IMG/VR virus record: IMGVR_UViG_3300025913_000019
Source of the DNA: a virus
Lineage: Duplodnaviria; Caudoviricetes
Length of the DNA: 64,000 nucleotides
Strand: one strand, 5' to 3'
The position numbers and the translations under genes were made by a program. Shown piece by piece: positions 26,422-36,422 of this stretch. Position 1 is the stretch's first letter. Every line of letters starts with the position of its first letter. The notes below the pieces were generated by a model. The model saw nothing but the letters and a program-made list of their open reading frames with translations, was not told the DNA's origin and ran no database searches.

Positions 26422-27927
26422 TCAGACGGCCACCGGTGCCTTGATGGACGGATGGTGCCGGTAGTTCAGCACCTCGAAGTCCTCGGGCTCGTAGTCGAAG
26501 ATCGACTCGGGCTTGCGCTTGAGGCGGAGCGTGGGGAAGGGATACGCTTCACCCACGCGCGCGAGTTGCGTTTCCACCTGTTGGGTGTGCGACTTGTACA
26601 GGTGGACGTCGCCGCCGGTCCACACGAAGTCGCCGACGGCCATGCCGACCTGCTGCGCGATCATGTGCGTCAGCATCGCGTAGCTGGCGATGTTGAACGG
26701 CACGCCCAGGAACGTATCGCAGCTGCGCTGGTACAGCTGGCAGCTGAGGGCGCGACGCGGCACCTGCTGCTCGTCCAGGAACTTGTGCATGTGGGCTTCG
26801 ATCGCTGCCGCATCCTCGTCATGCAGCGACCAGGAGCCGACCAGGCCCGGGCCTTCGTACAGCTTCGCGCGCTCGTCCACCGTCAGCTCGTGCGAGTAGA
26901 ACTGGAACAGGCAGTGGCAGGGCATGAGCGCCATCTTCGAGAGCTCGGCCACGTTCCAGGCCGAGACGATGATGCGCCGGCAGTCCGGGTTCGTCTTCAG
27001 GCGGTTGATGACCCAGTCGATCTGGTCGATGGGTTTCTGGTACACAGTGGCGGGCGGGCGGCCCTTGCCGTCGATGTCCGTGCTGGCGATTTCGACCAGC
27101 GTGTTGCAGCCGGGAGGCACGGCGCCGCCGGGAGCCGTGACATCGACCTGGCCGGGCCACGCGCGCCACTGCGCACCGTAGACGGGACCGAGGTTGCCGT
27201 CCTTGTCGGCCCACTCGTCCCAAATCGTGCAGCCGCGTTCCTGCAGCCACTTGACGTTGGTGTCGCCGCGCAGGAACCACAACAGTTCGGTGATGACCGA
27301 CTTGAGGGCCACCTTCTTGGTCGTCACGAGCGGGAAGCCCTTGCTCAGGTCGTAGCGCAGCTGGTAGCCGAAGATCGAGGTGGTGCCGGTACCCGTGCGA
27401 TCACCCTTGTAGCGGCCGTTGTCACGGATGTGGCGCATCATCGTCTCGTACTGCACGTCCGGTGCAGCTTCCGGCGTCGTCGGCTCCGGGAAGAACGCTG
27501 CATCGTCGACGATGACCATGCTCGGGGTGACACCACGCTGCTTCGGCTCCGACTTCTCGGTCGCCTGGCTGAAGTCAGGATGCGCACGCGACCAGCCGGC
27601 CTTGTGACAGGCCGGGCACGCTTCCTTGGCCAGCGTGCAGTCGCCGCAGAGGCAGCCTTCGGGAGCACTGGCGTGCATGTAGTTCGTGTTCATCGTCTGT
27701 TCCTTGTCGTTGAGACTCATGGCATAGGCCAGGAGATCGTTGAGGTTGCCGGGGGTGATGTGGATCGTTCCCCTCGGCGACTCGGGGTTCTTCGTGCCGT
27801 CGCGGTAGTGGAAGTTCGCGACCAGCCCGACGACCTGCATCTTGCGCTCGGGCGACGACCTGATCCAGCAGCCCTTCATCTCCCGCTTGACGTTCAGTAC
27901 GAACGTGCTGTGATCGTCGGCCATCAT
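26422..27927 (-). CDS. thyA: thymidylate synthase ThyA with ~155-aa N-terminal extension
   Basis: [65 protein letters not shown]. Confidence 0.95.
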
Positions 27928-28505
27928 GCACGCTCCGCTTGTTGACGGAGTCGAGTATCGTCATCGACCGCACCCGTCGTCTTCGCCCCGCCGGTGTGGA
28001 CGTGTGCCTGCATACGTGTCTGCGACCAGCGCAGGCAGTCGCTCTGCGTCAGACACCGCATTGCCATGTTGGACTTGGTCTCGCGGACCTCGACCTTGGT
28101 GCAGACGACACGCGGCCAGTAGCCGTGGATCTTCAACCAGCCGTCTGGCCCGTTGAGGTAGTCGAAGATGAAGTCCGAGAGGCCTTCGCAGCCGGTGCGT
28201 TCGACCTCGACCACCTTGGCCAGACCATGAGCGCGAAGTGCGATCAGGGTATCGCGTTGCGGATCGTCCTGCGCCACCAGCAGCGTGTGGTCGAACCAGT
28301 CCTCGAAATCGTCCTTCAGCGGCTTGAGCGATCCGAAGTCGACCACCCAGTTGCGGGCGTCCAGGTCAGCGGCGCCGAACTCGAGATGGATCGACAGCGC
28401 GTAGCCGTGCACGACGTTGCAGTGGCTGTCGGCACGCCACTGGCGGTACGCGACCGGGAACGCCTCGCTGTACGTCTTGGTCGAGTAGAACGGGAACTCC
28501 ATCAT
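27924..28505 (-). CDS. queD: 6-carboxy-5,6,7,8-tetrahydropterin synthase (QueD/PTPS-like)
   Basis: [40 protein letters not shown]. Confidence 0.88.
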
Positions 28506-28515
28506 GGTCAGCCTC

Positions 28516-28959
28516 TCATCTCATCGTGTAGATGCGACGACCCGGAGTAGGCTCGTCGCACGTGTGACTCTTCTGCGGCTCAAGCCGCCTCTGTACTTCC
28601 TTGGGAAGGTCCTTGGCTTCAACAGGCTTCGGTTCCTTCTTCGCACTCTCTTTATAGTTCCGCCTCGGTGGCAACTCGGAACCAGGCAGAGCACGGAACT
28701 GCGTGGCCGTCAACCTGGTCTGGTGCACAGGAACGCCACAAGCGCCGCCAAGCTCAACACGCTTGCGGCGCTTTCGGATCTTGCGCACGTGTAGGTTCTG
28801 CGCGATCTGGTATGCCATGGGGTCCACGAACTGCTTGTCGACCGACCAATACTTGTGACCTTTCGGGCAATCGTGTGCTATGACCTGGCCCTTGCGACCT
28901 GCGTTGGCCATGACGGACCCGCAGTCGGGACAGCTCAGTCTGCGTGGTCCGCCACCCAT
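28516..28959 (-). CDS. basic zinc-ribbon protein
   Basis: CPDCG and CPKGH motifs; Lys/Arg-rich. Confidence 0.55.
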   Translation of the reverse strand: MGGGPRRLSCPDCGSVMANAGRKGQVIAHDCPKGHKYWSVDKQFVDPMAYQIAQNLHVRKIRKRRKRVELGGACGVPVHQTRLTATQFRALPGSELPPRRNYKESAKKEPKPVEAKDLPKEVQRRLEPQKSHTCDEPTPGRRIYTMR

Positions 28960-29189: not shown

Positions 29190-30110
29190 TCAGACTCCTT
29201 CGTCTTCCGGCTCGTCGTCGACCGGCGCTTCGTCGGCCAGGTCACGCGCCACGTCCTGGTGCTCGGCGTCGGTCATGTTGGCGCCGAAGTCCGTCGTGGC
29301 CGTGCCGGCCGAGCCGCCCAGCAGGTTCGCGACGCTGTTCGGATGCGCGTCGGTGCCGCGGGCCGCGATCTCGGCAGCGGAACCACGGAGCATCACGCCC
29401 GACTCGGTGACACCGATCGTGGCTTGCGCAGCGCGCAGGCGATCGTTGGATTCCACCTGGTCGATGTAGGCCTTGGCCAGCGGCAGCGCGAGCTTGGACC
29501 AGCCTTCGAGGCGTTCCTGGACCTTCTCGAGTTCGGCGATCGTCAGCCATTCGCTGTTGTCGATCTGGCCGGCTTCGGGGTTGATCGCCGCCTTCTCGGC
29601 CGCGCTGACGTAGCGGATGGCGACGACGCCGCAGTGCACGCAGCCGACCTCGTTGGTGTCGGCCAGCAGGTGCGTGAAGCTCAGGGTCTGCTCGGGCAGG
29701 CCGGCTTCTTCCGCGAGTTCGCGGTTACCCTCGATGCTCAGCCAGGTCGCGAAGTTCGTGGCGGCGGGGATCGCTTCGTCCATGTGGCCGCCCAGGCCGA
29801 TGCTGAGGTTGCCGATGAGCCGGCCTTCGCCGCCGGCGCCGCCGCGGCTGTAGGTGAACACGCGGTAGTCGTCGTCGATGCAGAGGATGTAGGGGATGAT
29901 CTGGCGCAGGCTCGTGTCGGACTCGCAGTAGGCGCGGTCGACGAGGCGCAGCTGCGTGTTGTCCAGCGAGTAGAAGCTGGAGTCGATCGGCAGCGACATC
30001 GGGCGCGAACCCGAACTCGGCTTGCCGTCGGAGCCGTAGATGGCCTGGTAGCTGGGCTGGAGAGCGGACAGTGCGACGCACAGGGCGTACTTGATCTTCG
30101 GAGCGTTCAT
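29190..30110 (-). CDS. Nudix-family (MutT-like) predicted phosphoesterase
   Basis: RQIIPY..Y.R...E.RL....SIGLGGHMD..RELAEE..VG.VH.G..LEGWS pattern of a non-canonical Nudix clade. Confidence 0.75.
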   Translation of the reverse strand: MNAPKIKYALCVALSALQPSYQAIYGSDGKPSSGSRPMSLPIDSSFYSLDNTQLRLVDRAYCESDTSLRQIIPYILCIDDDYRVFTYSRGGAGGEGRLIGNLSIGLGGHMDEAIPAATNFATWLSIEGNRELAEEAGLPEQTLSFTHLLADTNEVGCVHCGVVAIRYVSAAEKAAINPEAGQIDNSEWLTIAELEKVQERLEGWSKLALPLAKAYIDQVESNDRLRAAQATIGVTESGVMLRGSAAEIAARGTDAHPNSVANLLGGSAGTATTDFGANMTDAEHQDVARDLADEAPVDDEPEDEGV

Positions 30111-30159: not shown

Positions 30160-30846
30160 TCACTTGTGGAACTTGTTGTCGGACATGGAGACGTTGATGT
30201 CGCTCATGTCGAAGAAGGGCTCGTCCGGCTTGCAGCCGAAGAGCGTGGTCTTGATCGCCGACGCGATGGAGAAGCCTTCCTGCTGTGCGCCGATGATGGC
30301 TTCGAGCACGTTCTCCATCGGCATGCCGAACTTCATGGCTTCGGACCGGCACGCGATCATGAGGGCACCGAGGCCGGAGGCGAACTCGACCATCACGTCC
30401 TTGCGGGCCGACTCGAGATCGTTGCTGCACAGGCGGTTGAACTCGAGCAGTCGCGCCCACGGTGCGTCGAACGAGTGCTCGCCGAACGTCTCCTTCATCG
30501 TCTGCTGCGCACGCGAGAGCATCTCGAAGAGCAGCTGCTCGAAGCCGCGGTAGCCGACGCCCAGCTTGACCTCGTCCGGCGTCTCGTAGTGGCCGATGAG
30601 ACGGACCTTCCAGTAGATCTCGTAGAGCGACTTCATGTGCTTGTCGAGTTCGTACCGGAAGTGGTACAGGCGCTGGTCGGCGGACTCCGGCACCTTGTTC
30701 TTGTCGAAGAGACCGTACAGGCTGGTCTCGGTCGAGACCGGGAGCTTGTTGCTCTCGTTGTAGCGCTCGATGTTGAACGCGAAGTTGTGCTCGCTGGTCC
30801 TGCTCAGGACCTGCTGCATCTGCGAAGCAGTCAGGTGTTGGTACAT
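30160..30846 (-). CDS. hypothetical helical protein, possibly a degenerate MazG/dUTPase-like fold
   Basis: 228 aa from MYQHL at 30846; helix spacing recalls MazG-like NTP pyrophosphohydrolases but the acidic metal ligands are not evident. Confidence 0.55.
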   Translation of the reverse strand: MYQHLTASQMQQVLSRTSEHNFAFNIERYNESNKLPVSTETSLYGLFDKNKVPESADQRLYHFRYELDKHMKSLYEIYWKVRLIGHYETPDEVKLGVGYRGFEQLLFEMLSRAQQTMKETFGEHSFDAPWARLLEFNRLCSNDLESARKDVMVEFASGLGALMIACRSEAMKFGMPMENVLEAIIGAQQEGFSIASAIKTTLFGCKPDEPFFDMSDINVSMSDNKFHK

Positions 30847-30848
30847 GG

Positions 30849-31568
30849 TCAGTCCTTGAAGGTGGGGATGAAGCGCATGAACTCGGCGCGGAGCTCCGGG
30901 GCTTCCATGAACTTGCCGCCGAGCTTCGATGTCACGGTCGAAGATCCCTCGTCGCGGACGCCGCGGCTCTTGACGCAGTAGTGCTCGGCTTCGATCACGA
31001 CGGCGACATCGTCGGTGCCGAGGACGAACTGCAGCGCATGGTAGATCTGCATCGTCAGCCGCTCCTGGATCTGCGGTCGCTTCGAGAAGAACTCGACGAT
31101 GCGGTTCAGCTTGGAGAGGCCGAGCACCTTGTCTTTCGCCAGGTAGGCGACGTGGCACTTGCCGGCGATGATGACGAAGTGATGCTCGCAGTTCGACTGC
31201 ACGCTGACGCTGCGTTCCAGCACCATCTCGTTGTAGCCGATCTTGTTCGAGACCACCGTCGCCTTCGGGAACTTCGCGTAGTCGAGGCCGTAGAAGATTT
31301 CGTCGACGTACATCTTGGCGACGCGCTCGGGCGTGTCGCACAGGCTGTCGTCGGTGAGATCGAGACCCAGCGTCTCCATGATGGCGTGGAAGTGGTACCG
31401 GATCTTGGCCTTGCGTTCAGCGTTGGTCATCGGCGTCGAGTCGCCATTGACGTCGATGATGCCGTTGCGGCCGACCTGCGGGCTCATCGGCGTCTCGACG
31501 CCTTGGGCCTTCAGGTGCTGGTGGACCTGGAAGCCCAGGCTGTAGTCGGTCTTGGTCATGTCGGTCAT
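30849..31568 (-). CDS. folE: GTP cyclohydrolase I
   Basis: DTPERVAKMY, SNCEHHF, LGLSKLNRIV, RPQIQERLT, AEHYCVKSRGV. Confidence 0.96.
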   Translation of the reverse strand: MTDMTKTDYSLGFQVHQHLKAQGVETPMSPQVGRNGIIDVNGDSTPMTNAERKAKIRYHFHAIMETLGLDLTDDSLCDTPERVAKMYVDEIFYGLDYAKFPKATVVSNKIGYNEMVLERSVSVQSNCEHHFVIIAGKCHVAYLAKDKVLGLSKLNRIVEFFSKRPQIQERLTMQIYHALQFVLGTDDVAVVIEAEHYCVKSRGVRDEGSSTVTSKLGGKFMEAPELRAEFMRFIPTFKD

Positions 31569-32428
31569 GCGATTGCGCAGAAGAGGTGTTGCTGGATCGA
31601 GAGCCGGAGGCCGTTCTCGATGGCGTACTGGGCGGCGTAGCCGTAGTTCCTGGCCGTCGCCACGGGGTCGATGAGGTCGTGATCCCAGGCCGAACTGATC
31701 TCGCCCTGGTACGGCTTCTTGTAGACGGCGATCGGGCTCACGTAGAGCGGGATGCGGTGCTCGCGTGCGAAGACCTGGGCCCACTGGGGCACCTTGTTGT
31801 ACAGCGGGTCATCGGCGCTGATGAGGAACTTGAGCGCCGTCGAGTCGAAGACGTTGCGGAGCACGGTCTCGCTTGTCGGCGTGTAGGTGCCGGTGAGCTC
31901 GGAGGCCTTCGGGCTCACGACGATGGTCGTCTTGTCCAGCATCTCGCGGAGACCGAAGGCCGTGTTCTCGGCCTGGCGGAAGAAGCGCGCCTGCGTGCCG
32001 TTGGTCTCGATCTGGATGCGGGAGAAGAACGGCGCCGCCACGTTCATGAAGCGCAGCAGCGTCTGGACTTGGAGCGTCGGCTCGCCACCCGTGATGACCA
32101 GGATCTGGCTGGCGTCGAAGCGCTCGTCCTCGATGATGGAGCGAAGCAGGAAGCTGGGATCGTACTCCGTGGCTTCGCTGAGCTTGAAGTTCGTGTCGCA
32201 GAAGGCGCACATGCCGGGGCTCTTCTCAGCCGTGGTCTTGTCGCCGAAGTTGCAGCCCGCGAGGCGAACGAACCACGCGGGCTTGCCTGCTTCCGGCCCC
32301 TCGCCTTGGATGGTGAGGAATGGCGCGCCGGTGACGTAGAGCAGAGGCGAGTTGTCGAGCTCGGACGGCTTGACGATGCGATCGACGTTCTGGATCACAC
32401 GCTGGATGGGGATGACTGTCTGTTTCAC
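31565..32428 (-). CDS. queE: 7-carboxy-7-deazaguanine synthase (radical SAM)
   Basis: FLTIQGEG..AG.PAWFVRLAGCN, CX14CX2C cluster motif, VITGGEPTLQ, IETNGT, VSPK; GTGA-overlap start. Confidence 0.92.
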   Translation of the reverse strand: MKQTVIPIQRVIQNVDRIVKPSELDNSPLLYVTGAPFLTIQGEGPEAGKPAWFVRLAGCNFGDKTTAEKSPGMCAFCDTNFKLSEATEYDPSFLLRSIIEDERFDASQILVITGGEPTLQVQTLLRFMNVAAPFFSRIQIETNGTQARFFRQAENTAFGLREMLDKTTIVVSPKASELTGTYTPTSETVLRNVFDSTALKFLISADDPLYNKVPQWAQVFAREHRIPLYVSPIAVYKKPYQGEISSAWDHDLIDPVATARNYGYAAQYAIENGLRLSIQQHLFCAIA

Positions 32429-32940
32429 GAGAGGCCCTCGGTCGAGAAGACGTGTTGGCTGTAGGCGGGGAACACTCGCTTGCACGCCTTGATGATCTGG
32501 CGCTTGAGCACGAGCGTTGCGGGGGTCGGGACTTCGATGCCCAGTTCCAGGCCTTGACGCTTGGCCCACATACGGTTCGAGTCGCCGTACTTGTCGAAGA
32601 GCGGGATCAGGTTGCGAGACCCGAAGTAGACGCGCTGGTAGCCGATGGCGGCCGCGGCTTCGAGGAACCGGCCGTTGCGGTTGTCGAAGATGCCGGGCTT
32701 CCCGTCCTGCGTCGGGATCGGCGGGTACTTGATGTACTTGAGGCGCTTCAGGCCTTCCTTCTCCATCGATTGCACCGCGATCATCTCGCGCTCCAGGTAC
32801 GACTGGCCGTAGTCGAAGAACAGCAGGTCGGGCTGCTCGATGCGACGCTCGGCTTCGATCAGACAGTACAGGCTGTCCCAGCCACCCGAGAAGAGGATGG
32901 CGGTGCGGCTCGACTGCCGGATGCGCCAGAGGTCAGTCAC
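32425..32940 (-). CDS. QueC-like PP-loop ATPase lacking the C-terminal zinc domain
   Basis: ILFSGGWDS PP-loop, FFDYGQ..RE, NRNGRFL, YGDS; ends where the T-SC-Y/CxxC zinc region of QueC would begin. Confidence 0.75.
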   Translation of the reverse strand: MTDLWRIRQSSRTAILFSGGWDSLYCLIEAERRIEQPDLLFFDYGQSYLEREMIAVQSMEKEGLKRLKYIKYPPIPTQDGKPGIFDNRNGRFLEAAAAIGYQRVYFGSRNLIPLFDKYGDSNRMWAKRQGLELGIEVPTPATLVLKRQIIKACKRVFPAYSQHVFSTEGLS

Positions 32941-33352
32941 GACGGGTTCGGTCTTGTCCTGCACGACGCAGGACGTATGGAAGGACGAGGGCATGGGGCC
33001 ATTTCCAGTTGAAGGGGAAGAGAGGGCGCGGCTGCATGACGCCAGCGTGGCTGGGGATGTCGAGGCAGACGTGAACGAGCCAGCCGAGGCACCACCAGGC
33101 GGTGCCGAATGCGCAGTAGCTGAATGCGGCCACGAAGGCGATGACCAGCAGCGAGTGGACGAGTCGGTACGGGATCAACTCGTTCTCGGTCAGGGTCCAG
33201 GACCAGACGTACCAGTCGTGGAAGCCCGACTTGCGGAACTTGCGCTCGACCGGCAGCCACACGAGGTCAGGTGCGACACACATGGCGGCGGCACCGTAGT
33301 GGCCGGTGAGCAGGAACGGGATGGCCGAGGCCGCGTGGACAAGTACGTGCAT
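32933..33352 (-). CDS. YdjM-like membrane-bound metal-dependent hydrolase candidate
   Basis: VH..., APDL, VHSLL, GWLVHVCLD, PLFPF with hydrophobic segments. Confidence 0.55.
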   Translation of the reverse strand: MHVLVHAASAIPFLLTGHYGAAAMCVAPDLVWLPVERKFRKSGFHDWYVWSWTLTENELIPYRLVHSLLVIAFVAAFSYCAFGTAWWCLGWLVHVCLDIPSHAGVMQPRPLFPFNWKWPHALVLPYVLRRAGQDRTRRD

Positions 33353-33364
33353 AGGAACTCCTAT

Positions 33365-34702
33365 TTACGGTTTGAGCCCTGCAAAGAAGTCCGTCTTGTG
33401 GTACTTCCCATAGCGCTTGATGATCCAGTACTGTCGGCTCAGGTCTTCCTTCGGAACCGTCTTCACGGTGTCGAAGAGCGTGCCCATCGCTGTCTTCTTC
33501 ACCGAGTAGTCGATGGCACAGGCCTGCTCGTACTTCTTAGTCTGGAGGATCAGATCGAAGGCGCGACCCATGGCCGGCAGCACGCGCTTGTCGAAACCGA
33601 CGCCTGCCTTGTAGAAGAAGCGCGCGATCTCCGTGCCCTTCAGCTTCTTGGCGATGGCGATCGAAGCCAGGCCATTCAAGGTCTCGCAGCCCTTGTTGAT
33701 CTGCTCCGCGTTGTGCAGCAGCATCAGCGTCGGGAAGCCATCCATCCAGTACTCGTACTCGATGAAGTTGCAGATGGGGCAGCTGCACTTGATGCGGCCG
33801 TAGTTCCCTTCGCGCGGCGGGATCGTCCCGTTGATGAAGTTCTTGAACTGCTGGCCGTTCAGATACGTCGTCGAGTCCGAGGTCACGACCTTCTGGTGCA
33901 GGTTCGCGATCACGGCCGCGAGGCTCATGCCGATGACAGAGCTCAGACCCAGCAAGTGGTAGTGCTTGTAGTCGGCCGGATGGAGCATGCCCACCAGCAT
34001 GTGGGCCGCGATCGCCATCGGGTTCGCGCCCACCGCGGTGTCGAGGATCGAGCCGCGCAGGCCTGCGATGCACAGGCTGTCCATCGGCTCGGCGAGCGCG
34101 ATCTTCTGCCATTTGGCGCGGAGCTGCGGTGTCAGGCCGTGGCTCACGTTCATCAGCGCCCACTTGGCCTTGCGCGCCTTGACCATGACCTTGGAATTCG
34201 CGGCCAGCATCCGGGCGCCGGCTTGCACCAGGATCGGATCGTCGACGAGCGAGAGCGGGAGGTCGAGACCGACGCCCGAGTCGGCGAACGTGTCGTGCAG
34301 CGCTGTCAGCTCGATAGGATCGATGAAGTCCTTCAGGCCGGTGAAGAGCTGGAAGCCGCCCGAGTCCTGGATGCGGTAGCACAGCTTGCCGAGCTCACGT
34401 GCTTGATGAAGGTGCGACTCCTTCATCACCTTGTCCTGCGCGTTGTAGAGGCCGAAGTGCGTGCGCTGCAGCAGCTCGCGACCCGGATGCCAGGCGTCCT
34501 TGAGTTTGATGCGCGCGCTGTGAGCGATGCGCTGACCCATGCCCTCCATGATGCGGACGCCGGCAGCCTTGCCCTCGATCTCCTTGCGGTACATGTGCGG
34601 CTCATACGAGCCGTGGAACGGCTTCTTGATGAGAGACTGGTTGTAGAGCTGCTCCATGGCAGCAGGCGCCCAATAGTATCCGGGCTTCGGAAGCTGTCGC
34701 AT
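33365..34702 (-). CDS. tRNA-guanine-transglycosylase-fold protein (DpdA-like base-exchange enzyme)
   Basis: QDSGGFQ, GLDLP, NVSHG, IAGL, YHLLG, TSDSTTY, zinc site CSCPIC...LLHN; heads the que/fol operon. Confidence 0.85.
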   Translation of the reverse strand: MRQLPKPGYYWAPAAMEQLYNQSLIKKPFHGSYEPHMYRKEIEGKAAGVRIMEGMGQRIAHSARIKLKDAWHPGRELLQRTHFGLYNAQDKVMKESHLHQARELGKLCYRIQDSGGFQLFTGLKDFIDPIELTALHDTFADSGVGLDLPLSLVDDPILVQAGARMLAANSKVMVKARKAKWALMNVSHGLTPQLRAKWQKIALAEPMDSLCIAGLRGSILDTAVGANPMAIAAHMLVGMLHPADYKHYHLLGLSSVIGMSLAAVIANLHQKVVTSDSTTYLNGQQFKNFINGTIPPREGNYGRIKCSCPICNFIEYEYWMDGFPTLMLLHNAEQINKGCETLNGLASIAIAKKLKGTEIARFFYKAGVGFDKRVLPAMGRAFDLILQTKKYEQACAIDYSVKKTAMGTLFDTVKTVPKEDLSRQYWIIKRYGKYHKTDFFAGLKP

Positions 34703-35073: not shown

Positions 35074-35448
35074 TCACCACCTCATTCGGTAGACGCGTCC
35101 ACCGTATTCGTTGGTGGACACGAAGTGTCCGGTCTTGATGTACTGTCGAGGTCCGGAGCTCGTGTCCTCGGGTTCGGACTCCGGTTCAGGCTCCGGCCTC
35201 GGAGGCGGCTCCGGCGGATCACCCGGTTCGAGGAATCGCACGTCAGCATCCGTAGGGCTGGGCCGCTTATGCTGCCGTGCCACATCGAACTTGTTGTACG
35301 ACGGACGGTCGATGAAGCGCAGGCCAAGCGTGAAATGGACATGACCCTCGTCACACCGACGCTTGCGAGCCTCGAAGCGGGTCTCTTTCGTCTTCAGGGG
35401 CAGACCGCAGTCAGGACAGTCTTGTCTCAGGATCGGCTTCAGATACAT
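35074..35448 (-). CDS. zinc-ribbon protein with Pro/Glu linker
   Basis: CPDCG...RRCDEGH; start trimmed to ATG 35448 overlapping the primase stop. Confidence 0.55.
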   Translation of the reverse strand: MYLKPILRQDCPDCGLPLKTKETRFEARKRRCDEGHVHFTLGLRFIDRPSYNKFDVARQHKRPSPTDADVRFLEPGDPPEPPPRPEPEPESEPEDTSSGPRQYIKTGHFVSTNEYGGRVYRMRW

Positions 35449-36422
35449 AGCGCTCTCAGCTGCTTCACTTTCTTCATGGGCATGTTGCCCGGGTCCCACA
35501 GGTCGACGCCCGCGGCCTTTGCTGCCTTGGTAGGCTCTTCCTCGTCACGGTACGGCCAGTACGGGCTGTCCTTGCCACAGAGATCGAAGACCACGACCTT
35601 CACCATCGTCTCGAGCGTCGGCTGTGCCAGCTCCGTTGCCTTGATGCCCGCGTCATCTCCGTCAAATGCTAGGACGATGCGTTCAGCGCCGGTCATCTCG
35701 ATCAGTTGGCTCTTGCGTGTCGACCACGACTGCGTGCCCAGGATCGAGATGGCTGGGATGCCCAGCGTCTGCAAGCGCAGAGCATCGCGCGGGCCTTCGC
35801 ACAGCACGATGGTCTTGAGGCCGAGCTTATTCATCAATGCTACGGCCTGGTCGTAGAGGAATAGCCCGTAGTCATGCGACCAGCCACCACGCGAGTTCAG
35901 ATAGCTGGGCTTCCCGTTCTTGTCCTTGCGTGTCCGTGCACGGATGTAGCCCCTGAGCTCACCCTTGACCATGACCGGGAAGTAGAGCATCTTGGCGCTC
36001 CTGATCCCGTCGTCGTAGATCGCACGGCACATGCGTGCCTTCACAACTTCGAGCAGGAAGTCGGTCTTGATCTCTCGCCAGACCTTGCCTGCGGGCAGCG
36101 GATAGAAGACGAGCTTGACCTCGCCGGGGTCCTGCCTGCGTTCGCGCAGGGTGTGGGCATACTGCTCGCTGGGCGGTGCCCACTTGTAGGCCTTGAGGCC
36201 GAGCATCGGCGCTACTTCATCCCAAGGCGCAGTCTTGCCACAGCCATAGCACTTGAAGAAGCCGGGACTCTTGGTCGACTGCGAGTGGAAGATGCGTCCA
36301 CTCGGTGTGTTCTCGGAGTGGAACGGACACGAGACGAACGTGGTGTCACCAGACCCACGCTTCTTCGGACCAGAGTAGTGGCCGAGCTCTCGGATCACGT
36401 GCTCCAGTTTACGACTGTCCAT
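35439..36422 (-). CDS. DnaG-type primase (CHC2 zinc finger plus TOPRIM)
   Basis: CPFHSENTPS...FFKCYGCG, VLCEGPRDAL, LAFDGDDAG. Confidence 0.88.
   Translation of the reverse strand: MDSRKLEHVIRELGHYSGPKKRGSGDTTFVSCPFHSENTPSGRIFHSQSTKSPGFFKCYGCGKTAPWDEVAPMLGLKAYKWAPPSEQYAHTLRERRQDPGEVKLVFYPLPAGKVWREIKTDFLLEVVKARMCRAIYDDGIRSAKMLYFPVMVKGELRGYIRARTRKDKNGKPSYLNSRGGWSHDYGLFLYDQAVALMNKLGLKTIVLCEGPRDALRLQTLGIPAISILGTQSWSTRKSQLIEMTGAERIVLAFDGDDAGIKATELAQPTLETMVKVVVFDLCGKDSPYWPYRDEEEPTKAAKAAGVDLWDPGNMPMKKVKQLRALCI

Follow-up and report, generated by a model that had tools for sequence, protein, structure and literature searches.

We analysed a 64,000-nucleotide stretch (the window) of the IMG/VR virus record IMGVR_UViG_3300025913_000019 (Duplodnaviria; Caudoviricetes), a record of 139 kb that is about 59% complete. 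The window carries a gene for a minimal, zinc-free member of the QueC family of PP-loop ATPases. QueC, also called ToyM, is the 7-cyano-7-deazaguanine (preQ0) synthase (EC 6.3.4.20), which converts 7-carboxy-7-deazaguanine (CDG) to preQ0 with two ATP by way of the amide 7-amido-7-deazaguanine (ADG). The gene and the motifs of its product are as follows, with coordinates in the window and residues counted from the first ATG.

32425..32994, minus strand: zinc-free minimal QueC-family PP-loop ATPase, 189 amino acids from the first ATG (P0001), recognized from its open reading frame (ORF), family libraries, fold, and a family of 131 representatives
32872..32889, minus strand: SGGWDS (residues 36–41), the PP-loop or ATP pyrophosphate-binding motif, aligning to SxGxDS of QueC and Cap9
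32785..32811, minus strand: YGQSYLERE (residues 62–70), a Y-x-Q-(x)5-E motif with the Cap9-type spacing of QueC YxQxHxxE and with Tyr66 instead of His
32674..32679, minus strand: R106-N107, the counterpart of E. coli QueC R99 and Cap9 R86 by hidden Markov model alignment to Cap9
32575..32616, minus strand: family signature RN-x4-FDKYGDSN (residues 127–140), in which Y136 and D138 are the CDG-recognition Tyr and Asp of QueC (YPDC) and Cap9 (Y115, D117)
32428..32448, minus strand: C-terminal tail F183-S-T-E-G-L-S189, in place of the zinc knuckle, from profile and MAFFT alignments and family conservation

A sequence-only reading of the window had described the gene as a 171-residue ORF with SGGWDS, DYGQ, RN, and Y.DS motifs and the ending VFSTEGLS. 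All of these motifs are present (DYGQ is residues 61–64 and YGDS residues 136–139), and the ATG start extends the protein to 189 amino acids; the shorter form begins at an inner GTG at 32940 in the same frame (32425..32940). Either start is possible, because residues 1–18 are predicted to be disordered in the AlphaFold2 (AF2) model. The protein ends ...HVFSTEGLS and then stop, at the place where QueC carries its Cys4 zinc site. The C(x)8CxxCxxC site is missing from the window protein, which has no Cys after residue 175. As had been noted, the other frames do not supply it: a QueC-type Cys cluster is absent from all three frames past the stop codon, where the sole Cys-rich stretch is the radical S-adenosylmethionine (SAM) cluster of QueE. 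The TGA stop codon of the QueC-like gene (32427..32425) and the GTG start codon of queE (32428..32426) overlap, together reading GTGA. A frameshift or split gene is therefore ruled out, since no downstream frame holds a Cys cluster, queE begins on the stop, and all close homologues end alike; none of them is full length. The G+C content at third codon positions (GC3) is 0.89, as expected for the coding frame in DNA of 62% G+C. Moreover, a protein 99% identical to that of the window and with an identical C-terminus (P0002) is on record on 2 contigs, so the ending is not an assembly error.

Assignment of the window protein to the QueC family is real but weak by sequence, and strong by fold. The Pfam model PF06508 matches with 26.6 bits (cut-off 22) over profile positions 4–50 only, and phrog_1550 matches at 9e-9. 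Neither of the curated QueC models reaches its cut-off (TIGR00364, 20.4 bits versus 150.3; NF008317, 23.6 versus 378). The AF2 model has a mean predicted local distance difference test (pLDDT) of 84.8, and its best Foldseek matches are the QueC structures 3BL5 and 2PG3 and the Cap9 structure 9NTO. Alignment with VIA-align gives Z 16.9 for Cap9 (root-mean-square deviation 2.5 Å over 152 residues), 15.2 and 14.1 for the QueC structures, and at most 12.7 for unrelated PP-loop enzymes. Thus Cap9, an amide-forming deazaguanine ligase, is the closest solved relative, ahead of QueC, by both profile and fold.

The residues that contact the substrates are retained. In the Cap9–CdnD structure the deazaguanine is stacked on Y115 and R86 and read by D117, and the equivalents in Bacillus subtilis QueC are Y129 and D131; R106, Y136, and D138 of the window protein align to R86, Y115, and D117. 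R99, Y131, and Y189 are essential in E. coli QueC (Libby et al. 2026). In the substrate motifs VPxRN and YPDC, the window protein retains R106-N107 and Y136-G-D138-S, but not the Val-Pro, Pro, and Cys. R106-N107 is invariant in alignments of close homologues, of QueC comparison sequences, and of diverse zinc-free members. With an intact PP-loop and with R106, Y136, and D138 kept, the protein thus has the requisites for binding ATP and CDG and for forming an acyl-adenylate.

The window family shares with canonical QueC (3BL5, 2PG3) the PP-loop Rossmann fold, SGGxDS, Tyr-x-Gln...Glu, Arg-Asn, the Tyr-x-Asp pair for CDG, and a conserved Lys, as well as a position in a FolE-QueD-QueE cluster beside a transglycosylase. 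However, canonical QueC has about 220–230 residues, whereas proteins of the window type have about 170–190 and stop four residues beyond the place where the first Cys would be. The family also has Glu for Y189, Tyr for the His of YxQxHxxE with one residue of extra spacing, and no Cys4 site. About 25 residues before RN are missing in zinc-free and zinc-bearing members alike (MAFFT alignment with E. coli QueC). It adds an invariant RN-x4-FD-x-Y-G-D-S-N block and an obligate YdjM-like partner, described below. Cap9 of type IV CBASS (PDB 9NTO chain B) is similar in its minimal size (about 185 residues), Y/F-x-Q-(x)5-E motif, R/Y/D deazaguanine contacts, and a Glu after the first zinc-ligand position. 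Cap9 has a CE(x)6CxxCxxC (xD) zinc site, whereas in the window protein only T-E is left of its C-E pair and the chain ends three residues further on. Cap9 is bacterial, adjoins a cGAS/DncV-like nucleotidyltransferase (CD-NTase) together with Cap10, and transfers CDG to a protein N-terminal Gly; the window family is viral and occurs with DpdA, QueD, QueE, FolE, and the YdjM-like protein. The window enzyme is QueC/Cap9-like yet lacks defining features of both, with no zinc motif, no Tyr189, scores below the QueC cut-offs, and no CD-NTase context.

The zinc-free ending is shared by a large family. A word-indexed search returned 19 relatives of 115–248 residues, and all close homologues end FS[ST]EGLS. 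An exhaustive profile search of 1.84 billion representatives gave 2077 matches at E≤1e-3, 163 at E≤1e-10, and 77 at E≤1e-30. Family counts were taken from 131 near-full-length representatives, each standing for one 50%-identity cluster. The Cys4 site is absent from 117 of the 131 and kept in the other 14. A tail of the form aromatic-[S/T/C]-[S/T]-X can be read in 113 of the 117 zinc-free representatives, and lies a median of four residues before the C-terminus in a stricter subset (n=74). Among 56 diverse zinc-free members, S36, G37, G38, Y62, E70, R106, N107, G125, R127, D134, and D138 are invariant, while S41, C44, G63, Q64, S139, N140, P158, K164, S184, and E186 are at least 90% conserved. 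P0001 itself has the family's 150–190 residue core, RN-x4-FD-x-Y-x-DSN, an aromatic-S/T-S/T-Glu within about 10 residues of the C-terminal end, and no Cys4. A FastTree phylogeny of 150 rows is poorly resolved (71 of 147 inner branches open). In it the window protein belongs to a clade of 10 members (local support 100%), the zinc-bearing forms make up one subclade nested among zinc-free ones, and canonical QueCs fall outside. The zinc-free state is old and dominant in the family; we make no claim as to the number of its origins.

This conservation speaks against the idea that the gene is a decaying or inactive QueC remnant in a phage that relies on the QueC of its host. Weak scores against curated QueC models and loss of a motif held to be a family hallmark would fit such decay. 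However, catalytic residues are invariant and a new C-terminus is conserved among 117 zinc-free representatives that are at most 50% identical. The window gene is translationally coupled within an operon and has the coding GC3 given above, and members of the family have been fused repeatedly and independently to the partner gene. We regard decay as scarcely credible.

The family is essentially viral. Neighbors of P0001 in the ESM Atlas are mostly Uroviricota clusters of 173–190 residues auto-named 7-cyano-7-deazaguanine synthase; another neighbor is a viral cluster of 268 members and about 533 residues with PF06508 and PF04055, apparently a QueC–QueE fusion. A pattern scan of 185,579 species genomes found a single contig, in a Bathyarchaeia metagenome-assembled genome (MAG). 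That contig (L063, CAYHEV010000011.1) carries QueE, QueD, FolE, YdjM-like, zinc-free QueC, and DpdA genes in a row and is probably viral. Searches with tblastn of 50,697 deposited phage genomes, for which the queries were the window protein, one fused member, and one zinc-bearing member, found no representative in cultured phages; the only matches are two weak ones (about 26% identity) in Staphylococcus phage records. We found no description of a zinc-free phage QueC in the literature. A 2026 survey of PF06508 defined ten clusters, none of them zinc-free and viral, and treats the zinc motif as a hallmark kept in QueC, QatC, Cap9, and cluster 4 (Libby et al. 2026).

The QueC-like gene is part of a co-oriented block in the order DpdA/tRNA-guanine transglycosylase (TGT)-like, YdjM-like, QueC-like, QueE, FolE, a 224-residue helical ORF, a NUDIX-like ORF, two small ORFs, and QueD. 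Its members with a probable function or family are listed here.

33365..34702, minus strand: DpdA/TGT-like transglycosylase, 445 amino acids; no Pfam TGT or PHROG match, and jumbo-phage relatives annotated TGT
32933..33352, minus strand: YdjM-like (PF04307 / Zn_dep_PLPC-related) His/Asp-rich hydrophobic protein, 139 amino acids, overlapping the start of the QueC-like gene
31565..32428, minus strand: QueE-like radical SAM CDG synthase with a GTG start, from Pfam, PHROG, and NCBIfam
30849..31541, minus strand: FolE, GTP cyclohydrolase I (PF01227, 2.4e-60)
27924..28505, minus strand: QueD-like 6-carboxytetrahydropterin synthase of the 6-pyruvoyltetrahydropterin synthase (PTPS) fold (PF01242, 1e-14)

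The TGT model PF01702 has no match in the record even though the DpdA-like gene is present, so the model is too narrow here. Orthologues of this gene that are 58–69% identical occupy the equal position in three related loci (L003, L006, and L013). The record holds no second PF06508-type gene.

We compared 40 related loci: five metagenome contigs, 11 further IMG/VR contigs (12 were found, of which one is a duplicate), 23 JGI/ENA contigs with a recognizable QueC-like ORF, and one MAG contig. Across these loci the QueC-like gene occurs with QueD, QueE, and FolE, and it adjoins DpdA wherever enough sequence is present. The recurrent order is DpdA, YdjM-like, minimal QueC, and then QueE, FolE, and QueD. 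DpdA is of a 440–460 residue type in the clade of the window; elsewhere it matches phrog_887 or has a BLAST match to a DpdA that does. The sequence-only reading had proposed looking for a conserved set of zinc-less QueCs beside phage dpdA, and such a family clearly exists. In some loci a zinc-bearing sister protein takes this place; most of these adjoin a phrog_887-type DpdA, and four have a YdjM-like gene as neighbor (L014, L017, L036, and L038). Zinc-bearing minimal phage QueCs such as P0015, P0016, P0017, and P0019 resemble the window protein in size, loop deletion, and FDKY-x-DSN, and differ from it by a C-terminal Y-N-C-Y-x(8-9)-C-x-C-x2-C.

In most of the 40 loci, a YdjM-like ORF of 116–139 residues overlaps the start of the QueC-like gene, or the two form one protein. 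Seventeen of the 131 representatives have a YdjM-like domain fused N-terminally to the QueC-like domain. These N-terminal domains match the YdjM-like profile at 1e-10 to 2e-37, Pfam YdjM PF04307 with up to 29.5 bits (cut-off 29, exceeded by P0089), and Zn_dep_PLPC weakly. Residues P28, D29, E36, Y62, H66, D98, and H102 are invariant in the partner, a pattern that resembles a metal site. In the AF2 model of the natural fusion P0089, both domains have a pLDDT of 89; the predicted template modelling score is 0.59 and the linker is weak, and we claim no arrangement of the domains. A complex prediction for the separate QueC-like and YdjM-like proteins scored 0.00, which speaks neither for nor against binding. 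We considered the YdjM-like protein as a replacement for the lost zinc domain and rejected this, since its gene also precedes the four zinc-bearing members named above and one fusion (P0074) is zinc-bearing.

No link between YdjM and deazaguanines was found in the literature. Our best guess, by inference only, is that the partner may supply or present the nitrogen donor, because the order of the fusions, a hydrolase-type domain followed by a PP-loop domain, mirrors that of GuaA, NadE, AsnB, and Gat-QueC. In those amidotransferases the N-terminal domain is a glutaminase, whereas in the 17 fusions it is YdjM/phospholipase C-like with a His/Asp metal-site pattern, and any release of ammonia by it is hypothetical.

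In the reading that we favor, the gene encodes a working zinc-free minimal QueC with preQ0 as its endpoint, and from sequence and predicted structure we place its probability at roughly 45%. CDG would be made from GTP by the neighboring FolE, QueD, and QueE. The QueC-like enzyme would bind ATP at its PP-loop and adenylate the 7-carboxylate of CDG, ammonia would attack the acyl-adenylate to give ADG, and the adenylation would most likely be repeated to give the nitrile preQ0, as in canonical QueC. The adjacent DpdA-like transglycosylase would then exchange the resulting base into phage DNA. The Cys4 zinc knuckle would have been lost long ago in a virus-only lineage, with a short conserved tail of aromatic-Ser-Ser/Thr-Glu in its stead, and the YdjM-like protein, encoded upstream or fused N-terminally, may supply the nitrogen donor or may stabilize or localize the enzyme. 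We favor preQ0 because the gene stands in the place of queC in otherwise standard clusters, flanked by the DpdA-like gene and by queE, to which it is translationally coupled, because zinc-bearing and zinc-free forms are interchangeable in one architecture, which argues for the same job, and because the zinc site has been described as structural in Cap9 and QatC. In addition, the variation among Glu, Lys, Asp, and His after the lost Cys is more in keeping with a residue of an exposed tail than with a catalytic residue.

Several observations weigh against a preQ0 endpoint. The zinc-free family profile matches Cap9 from end to end (5e-13) but QueC in its N-terminal half only. Tyr and Gln of the YxQxHxxE motif are retained, but His is replaced by Tyr66 and Glu lies one residue further, which is the Cap9 spacing. 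The alignment of the last eight residues is short, and its placement by MAFFT differs from that by the profile. MAFFT with E. coli QueC sets V182/F183 opposite C188/Y189. In the end-to-end profile alignment with Cap9, i-F-S-T-E stands opposite t-Y-S-C-E. Cap9 and typical family members agree in spacing from the conserved Lys and the Gly eleven residues later, and further zinc-bearing matches read [YFW]-S-C-[YE]. On these grounds T185 is taken to stand where the first zinc ligand used to be, and E186 to be the putative counterpart of E. coli Y189. Under both alignments there is no Tyr at the Y189 position, and the chain ends after a further three to six residues. Among the 113 zinc-free representatives with a readable tail, the lost Cys is followed by Glu in 95, by Lys in 10, by Asp in four, by His in two, and by Arg and Gly in one each, but never by Tyr, whereas all 14 zinc-bearing representatives have Tyr directly after their first zinc Cys (C-Y-x(8-9)-C-x-C-x2-C). 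Finally, we found no separate QueF (PF14489) in the record of the window or in ten related IMG/VR records. PF14489 matches a single FolE-sized frame per record, which lies inside the FolE gene where it was mapped (the window's own record and L018). Nothing in these genomes thus demands a nitrile.

An amide-level product, ADG or an amide with another amine, is a real possibility on this evidence, although it is not our expectation. If the enzyme carries out only the first half-reaction, CDG would be adenylated and, with ammonia, released as ADG, which the DpdA-like enzyme would insert so that ADG appears in DNA (dADG) without DpdC. The switch from Cys-Tyr to Ser/Thr-Glu is perfectly coupled to the loss of zinc, the Y189A variant of E. 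coli QueC is inactive (Libby et al. 2026), and Cap9, to which the family is closest among solved structures, likewise bears Glu here and goes no further than the amide. dADG occurs in phage DNA and a QueC-type ADG synthase has been postulated (Cui et al. 2023). DpdA enzymes tolerate varied 7-substituents, with CDG in DNA (dCDG) being inserted in a queC deletion host (Cui et al. 2023, Table 2). No separate QueF, the preQ0-consuming enzyme, was found in the eleven records just mentioned. However, Cap9 stops at the amide through its amine, a protein N-terminus, and not through that Glu. Both QueC half-reactions use one site for ATP and base, which is intact here. The interchange of zinc-bearing and zinc-free forms in one cluster type also argues against a halved reaction, as does the fact that 18 representatives have Lys, Asp, His, Arg, or Gly in place of Glu. 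It likewise counts against this reading that the one ADG-synthase candidate in print, from phage CP220, retains Cys4 and Tyr. Release of ADG seems to us rather unlikely.

The sequence-only reading had suggested that the zinc-less enzyme could stop at ADG or leave CDG, and had presented the DpdC-independent route to dADG as its own suggestion; Cui et al. (2023) had earlier put forward an ADG synthase of this kind, 'QueC*', in Campylobacter phages. The QueC* of phage CP220, the sole published candidate, is likewise a phage-encoded QueC homologue suspected of yielding ADG for DNA. However, it has 219 residues, matches PF06508 end to end with 156 bits, and keeps the Cys4 site and the Tyr (..SCY..C..C..C), and the window protein is unlike it in all three respects. 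Identity of the two is ruled out: QueC* is full length with Cys4, has no tblastn match to the window protein, and groups with the canonical outgroups in the tree.

The likeness to Cap9 raises the further idea of a ligase, in which adenylated CDG would react not with ammonia but with another amine (for instance an amino acid, a polyamine, or the N-terminus of a protein) to give an N-substituted 7-carboxamide base or a deazaguanylated protein, and in which the YdjM-like protein may prepare or present the amine. Cap9 is the best solved match by the scores given above, and the missing loop of about 25 residues before RN, which is also missing in Cap9, opens the active site. The obligate extra partner of hydrolase type is left unexplained by the canonical pathway. 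A small ORF of the block (28516..28959) has a possible MGGG start reminiscent of the MGGS and MGTS targets of Cap9 and QatC; this ORF is not conserved across the loci of the family, having a relative in L006 only. There is no CD-NTase or QatB-like partner, and the universally linked genes are only DpdA, the YdjM-like gene, and the CDG pathway, which points to a free base for DNA. The YdjM-like proteins themselves begin MH, MN, or MK and would keep their Met, making them poor targets of the Cap9 type. We consider a ligase of this kind improbable.

It is more improbable still, although conceivable from the architecture, that the enzyme acts after base exchange, with DpdA inserting CDG and the lid-less QueC-like enzyme amidating the 7-carboxylate on DNA. 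The loop and the zinc lid, both of which close the pocket in QueC, have been lost, and DpdA2 can insert CDG (Cui et al. 2023). In addition, one metagenomic protein of 419 residues (P0101) joins a phrog_887 DpdA fragment (residues 1–93), a YdjM-like domain (135–246), and a zinc-free QueC-like domain (257–403). P0101 may be an N-terminally cut gene call. The proposal is purely inferential, as no DNA-binding surface or domain was identified, and the zinc-bearing members, which have the lid, share the same context.

A bolder proposal joins the partner to the amide endpoint: the zinc-free QueC and the YdjM-like protein may form a two-component or fused amidotransferase-like enzyme that makes ADG or an N-substituted 7-carboxamide, rather than preQ0, for DpdA to install. 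We offer this tentatively, judging it on balance doubtful. If the product is indeed at the amide level, more than 100 lineages of uncultured phages, the jumbo phage of the window included, would carry dADG or an undescribed guanine replacement made independently of DpdC.

QueC has been treated as a uniform step with Cys4 as its hallmark, yet a large virus-restricted lineage has dropped both the zinc site and the adjacent essential Tyr. This lineage has kept every ATP and CDG contact and has gained a constant YdjM-like partner that is absent from described deazaguanine pathways. The automatic name '7-cyano-7-deazaguanine synthase' underlies predictions of preQ0 in DNA (dPreQ0) for many uncultured phages, in which the function of the enzyme is predicted only. 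Should its endpoint differ from that of QueC, the family would provide a missing phage route to dADG or a new DNA base; should it be the same, as we favor, it would define a minimal catalytic unit for nitrile synthesis in which the zinc site is dispensable. In either case, YdjM-family proteins would gain their first pathway context.

The nearest cultured relatives of the DpdA-like gene (22–29% identity) are TGT-like genes in jumbo phages of Pseudomonas putida, Xanthomonas, Erwinia, Vibrio, Achromobacter, and Burkholderia. In the phages Peetri, GR7B, and PhiXhv-15, the TGT-like gene is followed by a small Cys-rich ORF; we considered these ORFs as homologues of the YdjM-like protein and found that they are not homologous. 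In Achromobacter phage Motura, a related TGT-like gene is paired with a Cys4 QueC and an asparagine-synthetase-like gene.

Two small ORFs on the minus strand, 28516..28959 (147 residues) and 35074..35499 (141 residues), each contain a zinc-ribbon-like CPDCG...C..GH motif. Both match one ORF of L006 and so are likely to be paralogues. Were translation of the first to start at its first ATG, the product would open with MGGG, much like the N-terminal Gly motifs that Cap9 and QatC modify. The NUDIX-like ORF of the deazaguanine block (29190..30110, minus strand, 306 residues) has homologues in L003 and L013, and the helical ORF (30160..30834, minus strand, 224 residues), which lacks a family match, has homologues in L006 and L013. 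The FolE proteins of two related loci (L019:7630-8487 and L027:9445-10278) have 277–285 residues and carry an N-terminal extension of about 90 residues (YGIPKGG / YGVPRGG) that is absent from the FolE of other loci, which has 180–230 residues.

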